Below, in pieces: positions 1-6,533 of a stretch of DNA of 6,533 nt (positions within the stretch are counted from its first letter, which is position 1; each line of letters begins with the position of its first letter). Both the position numbers and the translations under genes were made by a program. The notes below the pieces were generated by a model. It saw only the letters and a list, made by a program, of their open reading frames with translations. It was not told the origin of the DNA and searched no databases. The stretch comes from a virus (Duplodnaviria > Heunggongvirae > Uroviricota > Caudoviricetes): the IMG/VR virus record IMGVR_UViG_2698536437_000003, positions 1-6,533 of that record. One strand, written 5' to 3'.

Positions 1-81
1 CGCCAATGTTAGACTGAAATTGACGCCTGATGTTGATTATTAATAATCAGCTATGAAGTTTTAATTTGAATACAATGCAAT

Positions 82-270
82 TCACGAGGACTGAAGTTTC
101 TCGCAATTAAAATTTATCAGTTTTACTTTCTGCTCTCTGGAAACGCCTGCTTCTTTTTTACCTGAGAGCATTTTTTCGCATTCTGATTTCGTTAGTTTAG
201 ATTTTGAATATCTTGTCCAGTTAGTAGGAGTGCCACCTTCCTTTTCAATTGTAGCGGTAATTTTATACAT
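82..270 (-). CDS. small hypothetical prophage protein (62 aa), in the position ydaC occupies downstream of ralR in Rac-type prophages
   Basis: ORF-track ORF 82..342 (86 aa) contains an internal ATG at 268-270 preceded by GGAGG with a 5-nt spacer. That ATG overlaps the ralR stop (ATGTATAA) at 263-265. The first 24 codons of the 86-aa ORF overlap ralR in another frame, so the shorter start is preferred. Product not recognised; placement is by synteny only. Confidence 0.5.
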   Translation of the reverse strand: MYKITATIEKEGGTPTNWTRYSKSKLTKSECEKMLSGKKEAGVSREQKVKLINFNCEKLQSS

Positions 271-469
271 GAACGCCTCCATTAATATTTTCAGTGGTTC
301 GTTTATCCCATCTTTCGAGCGCTTCTTTTTCACTTCCACCATAGCCAGTTCGGGATTCGCATCCGTTGCATTTTGCCCGGTAATATCATGAAATGTCTTT
401 CACCGTTACTGATGGACAACCACAAAACGGACATGGTTTAACATCGTCATATCTCAAAGTTTTTGTCAT
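263..469 (-). pseudogene. ralR: ralR/lar restriction-alleviation protein (Lar family zinc ribbon), interrupted by an in-frame TGA at 386-388
   Basis: Minus-strand translation from ATG 467-469 gives MTKTLRYDDVKPCPFCGCPSVTVKDIS-stop-YYRAKCNGCESRTGYGGSEKEALERWDKRTTENINGGVHV-stop (TAA 263-265). The two Cys pairs (CPFCGC ... CNGC) are in one frame on either side of the TGA. This matches my memory of the 64-aa K-12 RalR, which has Gly where the TGA sits. A TTG at 455-457 corresponds to the K-12 start position. Too short to appear in the ORF track. Confidence 0.6.
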
Positions 470-513
470 AAAAACTATCTCACGTTGGCGGTGCATTACA
501 CCGCCTGGCTGAA

Positions 514-1318
514 TTATTCTTCTGAATTATCGATTACACTGTATTCCCCGGTTAATACAGAGGAGTCTGCCGGATCGATTGTCAGTGGTTCCTTTTCATC
601 CATTGATACTGCACGCTGGATTTCAATTGAGACAGGCAGGTATTTAAACAGGCGACGAATAGCCGTTTTTTTTGCCATTTCTTCCCAGTGAGTTACCCAC
701 GGCCCGTTATTACCTGCCTTACTCTGGCTGCGCACCAGTTCAATCTGTTTGCGCGTCATAACTTCAAACTGAGTCCCTCCGTCTTTCAGTCTTGCGACAG
801 CATAGACGTGGGTAAGCATCTTCGTTTTCTCCCGGGCGGTGTATTAACTTTTCATCAAGGCCAAATTCGAAGCTAAACTCGTCACCTTCACGGACAACAC
901 GGGCTGACAGGCTGGCGATTTGACCAGAACGGCGAGCCAGATCAATCATGCCGCGATAGCCAATGATTAGCTGAACGTTCTTTTTACCGCTCTTTTCGTT
1001 TTTATTACCAAAAGGCAGTAAATATGCGTGGCCAAGGGCGCTACCTGGCTCAAGGCCGAGCTGTGAACACTGTACGATTGCACTGACAAAACTCATAGTG
1101 TCACAGTTTCCTAACGCTGGAACGTTACGAATTTCTGTGGTGGCGATACGGATCATACGTTCAGCCGTCATATGGCGTGGAAGAGCTGCTGCCAGTTGCT
1201 CTTTCATTGATGGCTGGTTAATAAAACTAATCACGTCGTTATTTTTAACTGCTGCTGGTGCACGGTTTCCCTGAGTTTTTTGCAGATCGGCTTTTGCGAT
1301 TGGTGGTTGCTTAGTCAT
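514..1318 (-). pseudogene. recT: recT (RecT-family single-strand annealing recombinase) disrupted by a frameshift near 814
   Basis: Two same-strand ORFs in different frames: 764..1375 (real start [13 protein letters not shown]... at ATG 1316-1318) and 514..819 (..THVYAVARLKDGGTQFEVMTRKQIELV..SVIDNSEE). Together they cover about 269 codons, the intact RecT length. The upstream frame runs into ...GENEDA and then nonsense (YPRLCCRKTERRRDSV) to a stop at 764. Only 1 nt (814) separates the last conserved codon of one frame from the first of the other, consistent with roughly a 5-bp deletion. Confidence 0.8.
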
Positions 1319-3983
1319 TTGCATATTCCTTAGCCCAGCGGGGCAGTGATAACGTCTTAATAGCTGGCCATTCATCGGTATTGAGGCAGTCAGCCAGGGT
1401 CCTCAGATTGCGGTGATATTCCTGCTGGCCTGCCAGTTTTGCTTCTTCGCCCATCATGAAAATCTCAACCGGATAACGTCCGCATTCAACAGTTGTGCTG
1501 GCAACCAGAAAAACGAAAGTTGGCAGCACACCAAACTGTGCTTCATAACCGTCACTGTAGAATGCATCCTGAACGTGATAGCGGTAGTCGTAATAAGCCG
1601 TTTTGAATCGTTGAATATCCGCTGTGGTTTTCACGTCCATGATCCAGTGAAATTCAGGAATAATTTTGTCCGGACGGCACCGACACAAAATTCCTGTTTC
1701 CGGATCTTCCCAGTAAATTGATGATTCAGCGTGTCCGGCGCTTTCCACAAGCCATTGACCCAGCGGCAAAGCCATAACGCTCTGATACATGAGTTCAATT
1801 TTCCGGCCTTCTTCGGCAGTGATAACCGTTTTTCCTGTGCTTGCGCATTCCATCAGAAACGCTTTCTCTTCTTCTTTTCCGGCGTTTGTACGGCGGTTAA
1901 ATTCAGGTGCTACGATAAAGCGGTTACTGAATTCTTCCGGTTCAAGTACACGGCAGTGGAAAGCGGTTCCTAAATCGAGCGTTTTTGTCTTTGTGGTGTC
2001 CACAGGGGCATTTTTACGCCACAAATACAGCGCCGGAGTATCAGTAATGTCGTCGAGCTGAGACTTACTGACACCGGGACCCGCGTGGTAATTCTCATTC
2101 GAAATTCCGTAATAAATACCAGGCTCTATGTCTCCTGCGATTACGGGATCTGCGACTTCGCCAGTTTCATCACTGCAATCGCGATGCAGATCGCTGCCAG
2201 CATTCTCATTGTGCGGATGTTCAGGGCCTTCCATTTCCTCCGGCTCTTTTTCCTGAGATTCATCCAGATTTTCTTCATTAAAGGTTTCCTGATACGTTGC
2301 GTCGCCCATCACCGCACCACAGTCAGGGCAGTTATCCCCGCCAGTCTGACCGCAGGCATTGCAGACTATTTCCGGTTTCTGTTGCACTACTGGTTCAGGT
2401 TGTTTCACATCCGGGCTGGTTTTTACAGTTTCTGGCGTGTTTTGTTCCGTTTCTGGCTGGTTCTGGTACACAGAGTCGCGAGTCTGGATCCCCTTTACCC
2501 ATTTCGGATCGTTCGGGTCGCTAATCCCTTCAACGAACTCACCACGCGAAGCAGCCAGTAATTTGTCTGCATCGACAGGATTTTTGGGCGGAATGTTTTT
2601 CCGTGTTTCATGGAGTTCTGCCCGCAGTTTCTGATATTTTTCATCAACAGAATTTACCTGTGACTGAGCATCCAGCGGCTGCGTGTCCTGATGATGTTCA
2701 GTTGCATCCGGTTCCACTGTTTCAGCCGTTGCCTGTTCATCTGCCATTGCGCAATATGGTTGCGGTTTTTCTTCATCATCCTGTTTTTCTTCTTCTGTTA
2801 CACGCTGCGGCATCGGGGCAGAGGAACGACCGCAGGCAATATCCACGATTTCCGGATCAGGGTTGGCATGATCAGTTTCAGTCAGTACTTTGTTCAGATA
2901 TTCAGTGACGTGCGCGGGGATGACCTCGATCCCAATTGGTGCTTCTTTCACGGACGCAACCACGATGGCGCGGGAATAATCCAGCCCGCCAGGCATGGTG
3001 ATGAATTTGTCGCGGAAAACAGAAAAGGGCGGTTTATTTTCAGCGATAATTTCCTCAATGCGTTTAGCGTGTGCCGGATGAAGGTTATAGATGTCCACGT
3101 CCATTGAACGGGCCAGAATGCCAGTGGCTACGTCGCGGGCCAGCGACGCCTGATCATGAACGAAACCTTCGCCGCGATCGGTAAGGTTCCCGCCGCCTGC
3201 ATTAGCACCGGAATCTGTGCGAGTGATGCGTGAAACACGATTCCCTTTTCGCCATTCTTTTGTTAGAAGACCGCGATCAATGTGTTCGGTGTCCAGCCAG
3301 GCTGAAATGAAATTCTTAAATTCATAGGGCTGATGTTTTTTCGTGATAGAGAAAACTGCCTTAATTGCATCAGTCAGGCGGAGCAGGGCGGCATTATCCA
3401 GAGTTGTCGGTTCTGCCATGCCGCGTATGGCCAACAGCAGATTCTGGACATAGCTGTTTTCCTGATCCATCTCAAGAGCGGTAATGTGTTCGCGTTGTTT
3501 ACGGGTGGCATGATGCAGGTATTTCCGATCCCCGGCCGCATACGTAAAAATGTGCAGAAGACGCTGTGTGAACCGCAAAGTGGCTACAGAGACTTCGCAA
3601 TCCTGGCAATCCCCGTGGGCGTCTGCCTGCGCGTTTTCTTCCAGGCCTCCCGCCAGTTCTTTGGTTTCCTGAGCATTATCCTGGTGGTGAACGTCGTCTG
3701 GTGCTGCTCCCGGTTTTAGTTCCCAGGTCATGGAGTCTTTGCTGAGTTGATAGCGTTCACTCCAGGTAAAATCGATCTCACCTTCAGGGGGCAGGTCATT
3801 AACGACAGGAAAATTCGTGGCAACAGCTTTAAAATAGTTGCTCAGTTTTTTACCTGACTTAACGATCAGGTAGTCCAGAGTGGCACAGGTTGATTCAAAA
3901 TCGTCGCTTGCCCACAGGACGACGTCAGGCTCACCGGATGATTTTTTCGCTTTCCGTAAAAGGAAGAGTGGTTTTGTGCTCAT
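1311..3983 (-). CDS. recE: exodeoxyribonuclease VIII (RecE), 890 aa, apparently intact
   Basis: Continuous 890-codon ORF. The C-terminal third (..[24 protein letters not shown].. EDPETG.. IMDVKT ..) matches the RecE nuclease domain with a PD-(D/E)XK-like D..E/D..D-x-K arrangement. The central region is acidic/low-complexity with a CNAC-x7-CPDC motif. The stop TAA (1311-1313) overlaps the recT start ATG (1316-1318) as ATGACTAA. Confidence 0.9.
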
Positions 3984-4054
3984 TGTTTTTTAACCTCAAC
4001 TCAGATTAAAATTCGTTTTGTTCAGTGAATGATCTTGCCGGATACACACTGTTC

Positions 4055-4079
4055 ATAGCCTGCGCCATACGCAGGCTAT
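4055..4079. other. perfect 10-bp inverted repeat (ATAGCCTGCG-ccata-CGCAGGCTAT) in the racC-recE intergenic region
   Basis: Arms 4055-4064 and 4070-4079 are exact reverse complements with a 5-nt loop. It lies 6 nt downstream of the racC stop and about 70 nt upstream of the recE start. On the plus strand it is followed by TTCTTTC; on the minus (mRNA) strand no U-tract follows. Confidence 0.4.
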
Positions 4080-4084
4080 TTCTT

Positions 4085-4360
4085 TCAGATTTCACCGTTT
4101 AATTTCATTGCAATCAGAGTTGCCAGAAATCCGGCTTTTTTTTCTGCGGGCAGATTCTTTCCGATGTGAACCAGGCACATTTTTGTGACACCTTCATCAA
4201 GTGTTTTTACGTTGCCTGATGGACCATCGATATCAACCACAGTGAATGGGGTTTCTTTATTTTTTGTTTTAATTACGTAGCCAATGCGCTTTCCTTCCAG
4301 ATTCACCTCGTGAACAATGTCATCGGTAGTTACAACAGTGGTTTCATAATTGGTAATCAT
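4085..4360 (-). CDS. racC: RacC-like small prophage protein (91 aa)
   Basis: ORF-track ORF 4085..4408. The internal ATG at 4358-4360 is preceded by GGAGA with a 5-nt spacer and gives MITNYETTVVTTDD..., 91 aa. Size and position immediately upstream of recE match K-12 racC. Identification is by synteny and size, not verified by alignment. Confidence 0.7.
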   Translation of the reverse strand: MITNYETTVVTTDDIVHEVNLEGKRIGYVIKTKNKETPFTVVDIDGPSGNVKTLDEGVTKMCLVHIGKNLPAEKKAGFLATLIAMKLNGEI

Positions 4361-4434
4361 GTTTTTCTCCTGAATTAAGGTTGAGCGAATCCCTGCCATT
4401 TCTGGCATAAATTCAGTTTCGAATAGTCAATTAA

Positions 4435-4611
4435 TTAAAGTTCGTGTGCCATCTGGTCTTTTTCGGCACAAGCTTCACTGCAATATTTTCTCGGTTCGTC
4501 TTTTGATAAAGTCCCGTGCATGAAGTGAAGCATTCTTTCTATAGTTTTGCTTTCTTCAACGTCTTTTTTGCAAAGGTGGTAAGCACATTTTATTTTCTTA
4601 GTCGTCACCAT
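4435..4611 (-). CDS. ydaE: YdaE-like small Cys-containing (putative zinc-binding) protein, 58 aa
   Basis: Hand translation of the minus strand: [58 protein letters not shown], stop TAA 4435-4437. Cys at C-x4-C and C-x3-C. Too short for the ORF track. The start ATG 4609-4611 overlaps the kilR stop (4605-4607). Sits between kilR and racC as ydaE does in Rac. Confidence 0.6.
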
Positions 4612-4826
4612 GACTCCGCCTTTACAGGTAAACCATCACGACCGAGGAAGACTTTAATCATGCAGTCAGTAATGCATGTTTTTGTAGTTAGGCTACGAAT
4701 ATAAAGTTTTCGCTTTTTAATATTGTTTGCCGAGGCAATATATGTCCGGCCTTCATGAAGAACATAATCGCCAGGAGTCACGCACTGGCGTGGTATTTCA
4801 TCGGTTCCGAAGTGATGAGCAATCAT
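4605..4826 (-). CDS. kilR: KilR-like cell-division inhibitor, 73 aa
   Basis: 73-aa ORF ([14 protein letters not shown]...). ATG 4824-4826 is preceded by AGGAG with a 7-nt spacer. Size and position upstream of ydaE/racC/recE match K-12 kilR. Function is taken from K-12, not shown here. Confidence 0.7.
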
Positions 4827-4872
4827 AATTATCTCCTTAATAAATTTGTCGTATTAAGAAAATTCCAGAAAA

Positions 4873-5721
4873 CTATTTAATACTCAGCAACTGCTCGACG
4901 GTCATGTTTTTAATTGCGCTTCGGTTTACAAGAGTCCAGCCCTGTTTCTCCAGATAAAGGCGGAAAGTGTCTAGGGTACAGACGAGAGCGTCATCAGGAA
5001 CGGTTTCAGTGAATTCGACGTTGCCGAATTTGTCGAAGCGAACAACCAGAGTGCGCCCATCGCCCGGAATGATTTTGTTTGTGGGAGTGGTATTATTCTG
5101 GCGTAGTTCTGCTTCCATGCGGTCGAACTCAGCGATGTAGGCCTCTTTGAATGCAGCGGCTTTTTTGCCAGTGAAGCCCATCACCAGGAAAACGAAGCCG
5201 TTTTTGGTGATCTGGTAGGCATTATAGGAATTGCCGCGATGTTCGAATTTAACCCGCGAAAAGTTGCTGGTTAAAAAATATTCAGAGCATTCGAGGGATT
5301 CTATTTTTTGGACAACATGATGATGTTGCTTGCCAAAAAACTCTGCGATCGCAATGGATGTAGTTACAGCGCGACCGTTTTCGATGGTTACGTCAGGGTG
5401 AGAAAGGGTAGGGATAGTAGTCATAATGACAGCCTCGATAGTCAGTTTAAATAACTCACCACCAAGGTTTTCCACGACCATAAGGGTGGTGAGACGTACA
5501 GGGGTGGAAATACCGGCGACTACCGAAACCGGCCAGCTTTGCGGCTGCCCTGCACGCCCCACCATAATCTGAATGTGGCTGTGCATTACGCATAAAAAAA
5601 CCGCCTGAGCGCGGTTATGCGCGGTAATCATCATCGGGTTTCCACGCCCGGCACCCGTTTTATAAGGTGCAGGTGCACTATAATTCCACCCGTTCTGGTT
5701 TTCAATAGCTACATTCAACAT
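4873..5721 (-). CDS. Rha-family phage regulatory protein; the full 282-codon ORF is given but the real start may be the internal ATG at 5422-5424 (183 aa)
   Basis: Residues about 100-200 (MTTIPTLSHPDVTIENGRAVTTSIAIAEFFGKQHHHVVQKIESL...NFSRVKFEHRGNSYNAYQITKNGFVFLVMGFTGKKAAAFKEAYIAEFDRME) fit the Rha (Phage_pRha) domain pattern, which is normally N-terminal. ATG 5721 has an AGGTGA SD with a 6-nt spacer; ATG 5424 has GAGG with an 8-nt spacer. The upstream 99 codons have no recognisable domain and contain a terminator-like hairpin. Confidence 0.6.
   Translation of the reverse strand: MLNVAIENQNGWNYSAPAPYKTGAGRGNPMMITAHNRAQAVFLCVMHSHIQIMVGRAGQPQSWPVSVVAGISTPVRLTTLMVVENLGGELFKLTIEAVIMTTIPTLSHPDVTIENGRAVTTSIAIAEFFGKQHHHVVQKIESLECSEYFLTSNFSRVKFEHRGNSYNAYQITKNGFVFLVMGFTGKKAAAFKEAYIAEFDRMEAELRQNNTTPTNKIIPGDGRTLVVRFDKFGNVEFTETVPDDALVCTLDTFRLYLEKQGWTLVNRSAIKNMTVEQLLSIK
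5594..5616 (-). terminator. weak terminator-like hairpin (AACCGC-GCUCAG-GCGGUU followed by U5-7), inside the 5' extension of the Rha ORF
   Basis: Plus strand 5594-5616 is AAAAAAACCGCCTGAGCGCGGTT. On the minus transcript this is a 6-bp stem (4 GC pairs), a 6-nt loop, then a U-run. The stem is short, so this may be chance. Confidence 0.25.
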
Positions 5722-5904
5722 TTTCTCTCACCTTTCATCACCGAAGTGAACTTTGTTGATGCGGTGCCTGGTGCCTCCAGGTGACGTTAACCAGTTAACA
5801 ATTAACGCCGGATATTTCACCCATAACTCTGCTACGAAGGACAATAGCTTTTTAACTGTTCCGCGTGCGCTTAGCCGCATTCACCGCATCACAAAATTCA
5901 CTTT

Positions 5905-5951
5905 AAAAAGGGCGGACATCAGTCGAACTTCAAGAAAAAACTGATGCCGCC
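5905..5951 (-). terminator. candidate rho-independent terminator on the minus strand: 12-bp stem with one bulge, followed by CUUUUU
   Basis: Arms 5911-5923 (GGCGGACATCAGT) and 5940-5951 (ACTGATGCCGCC) are reverse complements apart from one bulged A, with a 16-nt loop. On the minus transcript the stem is followed by CUUUUUAAAG (plus 5901-5910). Confidence 0.45.
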
Positions 5952-6105
5952 AAGACTACACACAGCAGTGTTGTTATTCACAACCGGAGGCGCACTCCCA
6001 CCATTTAAATTTGACAGACAAGACCGACTCTTTATGGATACCGGAAATGCGCCTTCGTGTTATGCCCGGTTTTATTTCACCACCTCCGGGCTTTGGTGGC
6101 CTCGG

Positions 6106-6210
6106 CTATACCAAGCTTTTGGTATACGTCATGGCGGTGAACGTTCCATCCTGGTTGGGGAACACGCCACACACTAGGGATTCGTTGTTGCCGAGGTCGA
6201 TTTTTTGCAT
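6106..6210 (-). CDS. small hypothetical ORF (34 aa), in the position of ydaF in Rac; possibly truncated
   Basis: Hand translation: MQKIDLGNNESLVCGVFPNQDGTFTAMTYTKSLV, stop TAG 6106-6108. ATG 6208-6210 lies 10 nt after the stop of the upstream ydaG-like ORF, with no clear SD. Not verified by homology. Confidence 0.3.
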   Translation of the reverse strand: MQKIDLGNNESLVCGVFPNQDGTFTAMTYTKSLV

Positions 6211-6220
6211 TTTGCGAATC

Positions 6221-6355
6221 TCACATCTTGTTGCTGCATATAGCGGCTTCTGCCTGCCAGAGATCCCAGTCGTTGCTGCGTAGAGCCTGTACAGCTTGGC
6301 TGTAAGTGATACCGCAACAATCCATCAAATACTGAACTACTTCGTAATGCACCAT
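6221..6355 (-). CDS. small prophage protein (44 aa), ydaG-like by size and position
   Basis: Hand translation: MVHYEVVQYLMDCCGITYSQAVQALRSNDWDLWQAEAAICSNKM, stop TGA 6221-6223. ATG 6353-6355 is preceded by AGGGAGAG about 7 nt upstream. The 44-aa length matches my memory of K-12 YdaG; sequence identity not verified. Confidence 0.5.
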   Translation of the reverse strand: MVHYEVVQYLMDCCGITYSQAVQALRSNDWDLWQAEAAICSNKM

Positions 6356-6399
6356 TTTATCTCTCCCTTTAACGCCGGGTGGCGGAACTAAAACCTACA

Positions 6400-6533
6400 G
6401 CGCCGTGCTGCTTCTGTAATAATATTAGTTATGTTCATATTAATGATCAACACAAATATGCATTTCGTTGATAAAAATGTACTATCCTAATGAAATTTTT
6501 AGTGTTTTTTTGATAAAAAGTAAGGCGGGGGCG
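6400..6533. promoter_or_regulatory. AT-rich intergenic region with an exact 10-bp direct repeat TTGATAAAAA (6468-6477 and 6510-6519); candidate promoter/operator region
   Basis: No ORF can enter from the right edge on the minus strand for more than about 30 codons (stops in all three frames by 6447-6489). TTGATA (6468-6473) resembles a -35 element, with TGAAAT 17 nt downstream (6491-6496) as a weak -10. No repressor gene is visible inside the window. Confidence 0.3.

Follow-up and report, generated by a model that had tools for sequence, protein, structure and literature searches.

The window, a stretch of 6,533 nucleotides that makes up positions 1 to 6,533 of IMG/VR record IMGVR_UViG_2698536437_000003, carries along its minus strand, in this order, genes for a Rha-family regulator, kilR, ydaE, recE, recT, ralR and DUF1187/rcbA, with xisR, intR and ttcA placed just past its end. 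The order is based on the annotations of near-identical genomes and of K-12, and recE, recT and DUF1187 were confirmed in the window by Pfam. The position of ralR, between recT and the rcbA/xis/int end at ttcA, is that found in a Rac-like prophage, and the host element is, judged by this gene order, an E. coli prophage of the Rac-like kind, inserted at ttcA. The features of the window are as follows.

82-270, minus strand: rcbA/ydaC-like DUF1187 gene, intact, 62 aa (PF06688, 132 bits; WP_001302840.1)
86-264, plus strand: ralA, the gene of the 179-nt RalA antitoxin sRNA (Rfam RF02694, 218.2 bits, gathering score 170; model positions 1-179)
148-163, plus strand: 16-nt RalA pairing element (RalA nt 63-78), the same as in K-12
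263-469, minus strand: ralR (lar), predicted pseudogene; in identical genomes PGAP places the gene at the equivalent of window 457..263, with a TTG start
263-265, minus strand: normal ralR stop, TAA (265..263)
318-336, minus strand: RalA pairing site in the ralR mRNA, GAAGUGAAAAAGAAGCGCU, 3' of the premature stop; site defined by Guo et al. 2014 (PMC4041452)
359-370, minus strand: CNGC, second Cys pair of ralR, from the codon list and translation; 3' of the stop, untranslated
386-388, minus strand: premature in-frame TGA replacing GGA (Gly24 of K-12); base 388 of the window is the mutated one
416-433, minus strand: CPFCGC, first Cys cluster of ralR, from the codon list and translation; the sole part of the zinc ribbon still translated
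487-505, minus strand: recT-ralR spacer hairpin, GGCGGUGU AAU GCACCGCC (-16.1 kcal/mol, z = -3.24)
514-1323, minus strand: recT with a private frameshift, lesion at 814-815
5482-5569, minus strand: C4 antisense RNA (Rfam, 73.1 bits, above the gathering score)
5594-5670, minus strand: isrK (Rfam, 62.7 bits, above the gathering score)

The assignment of the gene to ralR/lar, made in an earlier note on this DNA, is borne out by the family profiles. If Gly is put in place of the stop, the resulting 64-aa protein scores 155.4 bits against NF007260, the NCBIfam RalR equivalog (cut-off 113 bits), over profile positions 1-64 of 64, 51.3 bits against the Lar family TIGR03655 (cut-off 39.6) and 50.8 bits against Pfam PF14354, Lar_restr_allev (cut-off 28.6); read in this way, it has the family profile of the RalR toxin. 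As a refinement of the earlier note, the gene is on the minus strand, where window 499..263 translates as VMHRQREIVFMTKTLRYDDVKPCPFCGCPSVTVKDIS*YYRAKCNGCESRTGYGGSEKEALERWDKRTTENINGGVHV* (asterisks mark stops). The stop, TGA at 388..386 (TCA on the plus strand), interrupts the RalR frame of about 64 aa at codon 24. It lies in frame between CPFCGC and CNGC, just as the earlier note had described and placed it, so that the two motifs are both present in the DNA in the same frame and do not share one polypeptide. The window ralR is a predicted pseudogene of the RalR family and not a functional member. A search for solved RalR structures found none, the matches being weak and irrelevant.

The origin of the stop was traced by comparison with related ralR genes. 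In a five-sequence DNA alignment, K-12 MG1655, CAU16175 and B4103-1 have GGA at this codon, whereas the window and 13E0725 have TGA. K-12 MG1655 RalR reads ...KAISGYYRAKCNGC..., with Gly24 (GGA) opposite the window TGA, as the earlier note had stated; the stop aside, five differences separate the two proteins in the other 63 aligned residues. The closest comparison is with SJ7, whose ralR codes for an intact protein (annotated WP_096245389.1): over window positions 200-560 (361 nt) the sole difference is base 388, which on the coding strand is G in SJ7 and T in the window. Because SJ7 differs at that base only, a single G-to-T transversion explains the whole lesion, and the change from GGA (Gly24) to TGA is, on this comparison, the one-step event that the earlier note had thought sufficient.

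The same note had called the start of ralR ambiguous, with an upstream ATG competing with a TTG at the K-12 start position, and the alignment contains both. The position of the K-12 ATG is TTG in the window (457..455), the start chosen by PGAP in related genomes, and an in-frame ATG lies four codons 5' (469..467) in all five aligned sequences, K-12 (MRKIMRYDN) included. Each start pairs only weakly with the 3' end of 16S rRNA: the window values are -2.8 kcal/mol for the upstream ATG versus +0.7 for the TTG, and those of K-12 are -2.7 for the annotated ATG versus +0.4 for the upstream ATG. The weak Shine-Dalgarno-like pairing is thus swapped between the starts, and different ralR alleles may use different ones. 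A further ATG, far upstream (496..494), is unlikely to serve as the ralR start, being sequestered in the stable hairpin of the recT-ralR spacer, and a tblastn search of phages returned too few diverged homologues to decide the start. The ambiguity leaves the main conclusion unchanged, because every candidate start shares the frame that reaches the TGA.

Translation would end at codon 24, giving a peptide of 23 aa if it begins at the TTG, or of 27 aa if it begins at the upstream ATG. This peptide has the first Cys cluster only; the second pair is missing, as are the C-terminal two thirds of RalR. The truncated product matches NF007260 with 50 bits, under the cut-off, over profile positions 1-23 of 64. 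In the ralR codon list there is no in-frame ATG, GTG or TTG 3' of the stop, and the only remaining candidate is an ATT seven codons ahead of the natural end; in-frame reinitiation is ruled out by the absence of ATG, GTG and TTG in frame past the stop. The region of RalR required for toxicity was shown by Guo et al. 2014 (PMC4041452), and it falls 3' of the premature stop (window 336..318). Loss of toxin function is expected because the second Cys pair and the toxicity region are gone and no restart codon follows. Thus, no functional RalR toxin is expected to be made from the TGA allele; the loss of toxicity is what we infer from the missing part of the protein. Non-specific DNase activity and toxicity on over-expression have been published for K-12 RalR alone, and the DNase activity comes from a single laboratory (PMC4041452). 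Taken together, the window ralR is very probably a loss-of-function nonsense allele of the toxin of the RalR/RalA pair in a Rac-like prophage.

The earlier note had suggested looking for RalA in 250-520 on both strands; RalA is indeed retained (the RF02694 match at 218.2 bits), and its site, 86..264 on the plus strand, lies almost wholly outside that range. The sRNA gene is adjacent to and convergent with ralR, has its 16-nt complementarity to the ralR coding region, and is the same as K-12 RalA at 177 of 179 bases. A local calculation gives a predicted RalA/ralR duplex of -17.9 kcal/mol, versus -18.2 in K-12; prediction with the whole molecules returned a meaningless end-to-end duplex and was replaced by the local one. 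The ralR target site has one edge change relative to K-12, A to G, which turns a U-A pair into U-G. In the K-12 system the action of RalA is Hfq-dependent (PMC4041452). The locus keeps ralA, the target of RalA within the ralR mRNA, and the overlapping gene rcbA/DUF1187; what would be missing, by reason of the premature stop, is the functional toxin of the system, such that the locus as it stands is predicted to be an antitoxin without a toxin.

The gene that overlaps RalA offers a simple account of this retention. The rcbA ATG (270..268) overlaps the end of ralR and is preceded by a strong Shine-Dalgarno sequence of its own, GGAGG (pairing -9.3 kcal/mol), and ralA lies antisense, wholly inside rcbA/DUF1187. 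The stop of rcbA is TGA at window 82-84 on the minus strand versus AGA in K-12, giving 62 versus 69 aa, and the shorter product is the common form WP_001302840.1. Retention of RalA says little about selection for the antitoxin, because selection on the rcbA protein alone would conserve RalA; the sRNA may also have the rcbA mRNA as a target in cis. The two bases at which RalA differs from K-12 are substitutions in the 3' arm of its Rho-independent terminator (Guo et al. 2014), at window 250 and 253 (RalA nt 165 and 168). A C-A mismatch of the stem results, and folding of the window sequence does not give the hairpin predicted for K-12 (-7.8 kcal/mol). Both changes are synonymous in rcbA, and the same bases are present in SJ7, CAU16175 and B4103-1, all with intact ralR; the predicted weakening of the terminator is therefore a feature of an allele group and no consequence of the stop. 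In this group, selection seems to act on RcbA and not on the structure of RalA.

To follow the TGA allele in other genomes, we used a 31-mer centred on the mutated base and megablast with an exact 28-base word, so that every match includes that base. The TGA 31-mer occurs in 18 of 5426 complete E. coli genomes, with a ralR annotation in every case, and in four IMG/VR contigs; it has no match among GTDB species representatives. The sister 31-mer with G (GGA) is found in 107 of the complete E. coli genomes, and the ralR region overall in 1910. The sources on record for the carriers are mainly cattle, beef or human, and several are labelled O157:H7 or O45:H2. Two carriers, F6294 (NZ_CP038372.1) and FWSEC0003 (NZ_CP031916.1), each match the ralR region at a second site. 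Annotation was examined for two carriers, 13E0725 (NZ_CP020092.1, EC725_RS15085) and strain 2571 (NZ_CP038425.1, E3150_RS14445): their ralR region is 100% identical to window 200-560, TGA included, and PGAP calls ralR a pseudogene with an "internal stop". The TGA allele is thus already known, labelled as a pseudogene in RefSeq; the literature search on the ralR pseudogene found nothing particular to this allele.

Between 13E0725 and strain 2571, the chromosomal flank at ttcA/dbpA has 33 differing positions in about 1.5 kb, whereas the int-xis segment adjoining it has 2 in about 1.5 kb. Except for its own recT lesion, the window equals strain 2571 from the int-xis side to position 1027 (rcbA, ralR and the 5' part of recT), and deeper into the prophage, beyond 1027, the identity is only about 95%. 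A near-invariant end set against a divergent flank and interior indicates that the dead allele rides a prophage end that is not confined to a single background or a single prophage mosaic. The segment that carries it, int-xis-rcbA-ralR-recT, is almost invariant and occurs in two or more chromosomal backgrounds. We regard the ralR lesion as ordinary prophage gene decay.

That the loss of RalR was selected and not neutral, with a toxin-null, RalA- and RcbA-proficient prophage end spreading in E. coli of cattle, beef and humans, is in our judgement improbable. If it were true, RalA could be an anti-addiction or immunity RNA whose target is either a Rac-like phage entering the cell or another copy of ralR, and the second ralR-like site in F6294 and FWSEC0003, if it is an intact copy, could give the retained RalA a target. 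Another option under selected loss is that the real job of RalA would be cis-antisense control of rcbA.

We consider it very unlikely that the UGA is recoded, by selenocysteine insertion, programmed read-through or frameshifting, perhaps to supply full-length RalR at a lower, tolerable dose. UGA is the leakiest stop codon of E. coli, and a leaky UGA could in principle tune the dose of a toxin. Against recoding, the 60 nt 3' of the UGA fold with -9.4 kcal/mol, no better than shuffled sequences (z = +0.91), and a scan of the window with Rfam at E<=1 gave neither a SECIS nor any other recoding element; selenocysteine insertion or structured recoding is rejected on this absence of a stable hairpin past the UGA and of an Rfam match. 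Furthermore, the ancestral residue at the stop is Gly, neither Cys nor Sec, no slippery heptamer or prfB-like signal was seen 5' of the stop, and the base after the UGA is U, which makes an efficient termination context. Low-level spontaneous read-through of the TGA allele may occur.

A further reading would give the N-terminal peptide of 23-27 aa a function of its own, for example dominant-negative or as a new micropeptide, for which the allele has been kept. Of the ribbon with its four Cys, the peptide retains one cluster, and it covers only 23 of the 64 profile positions. The occurrence of the TGA allele in more than one chromosomal background would suit such a function, but hitch-hiking on a mobile prophage end accounts for the spread equally well, and a selection signal is not measurable because all carriers are identical near the site. 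We attach very little weight to it.

Gene decay in this prophage may extend beyond ralR. The closest complete relative, 13E0725, has 99.9% identity to the window, which differs from it by three SNPs and two private lesions; compared with the pseudogene of 13E0725 and strain 2571, ralR shows no difference, and what the window has in addition is one lesion in recT, a frameshift, and one in ydaF, a loss of 94 nt, both of them private. In recT, the CACTGGT of every relative is replaced at 814-815 by AA (net -5 nt). The resulting frameshift divides RecT between two ORFs, 764..1375 and 514..819, which match Pfam RecT positions 1-105 and 114-187, respectively. At 6113-6114, AA stands in place of 94 nt of 13E0725, the 3' end of ydaF/DUF1391 is gone, and a HindIII site, AAGCTT, is created within a TATACC/GGTATA inverted repeat. 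The recT junction was found in none of the 5426 complete E. coli genomes and in neither IMG/VR nor the JGI metagenomes, and the 6113-6114 junction likewise has no match in any complete E. coli genome, IMG/VR or the JGI metagenomes. Both AA lesions may be real or artefacts. If real, they describe a prophage decaying at several loci, which fits a neutral loss of ralR; if consensus errors, they leave the ralR result intact, because the TGA is shared with many independent assemblies. For the same reason, although two lesions seen in no other genome make the consensus quality elsewhere questionable, a sequencing or assembly error at the TGA, with GGA in the true genome, has a negligible chance and is ruled out by recurrence: unlike both private lesions, the TGA is common to other genomes, its exact 31-mer being present in the 18 independently finished E. 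coli genomes and the four IMG/VR contigs.

At the other end of the window, isrK and C4 (region 5395-5683, minus strand) lie inside the 5' part of the Rha-family regulator ORF (4873..5721), and Pfam Phage_ASH (PF10554) matches residues 14-109 of that ORF, the same DNA as isrK/C4. The region looks like an antirepressor module of the P1 immI / Gifsy-1 IsrK type; the 'Ash' match may represent translated RNA genes, and the true Rha start may lie further 3'. Upstream of isrK/C4, in 5752-5964 on the minus strand, there are two sub-threshold Rfam matches, STnc100 (5752-5898, 40.6 bits versus 47) and DicF (5910-5964, 42.8 bits versus 48).

The locus compares directly with the RalR/RalA system of the K-12 Rac prophage (Guo et al. 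2014, PMC4041452; ralR was formerly lar). The order recE-recT-ralR-rcbA(ydaC)/ralA-xisR-intR by ttcA is the same, RalA is the same at all but two of its bases, the 16-nt element is identical and the duplex is of similar strength. In contrast, the toxin frame of the window is interrupted at codon 24, the K-12 start ATG has become TTG, the RalA stem has the C-A mismatch, and rcbA ends seven codons earlier. Orphan antitoxins that persist once the toxin has become a pseudogene have been described, for example higA, which E. coli K-12 and HS retain in the absence of parE (PMC7232551). As in that case, the toxin is lost or inactivated and the antitoxin gene stays; unlike it, the antitoxin in the window is an sRNA, wholly antisense in an intact rcbA, and it can be retained with no selection acting on the antitoxin itself. 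A more distant Lar/RalR homologue, unannotated and with 48% identity, lies at about 598-747 of Klebsiella phage vB_KpnP_XY3 (PV296009.1). It has an in-frame stop of its own at another codon (...SGHFRA*CSGC...) and is without the first Cys, and would be an independent pseudogenisation.

Despite its RalA match and its ralR-like sequence, the window prophage should not be counted as an active carrier of RalR/RalA. The locus is a small, clean case in which the toxin is gone and the RNA antitoxin stays, and it illustrates that retention of an antitoxin can be a by-product of its overlap with another coding gene, in this case rcbA.
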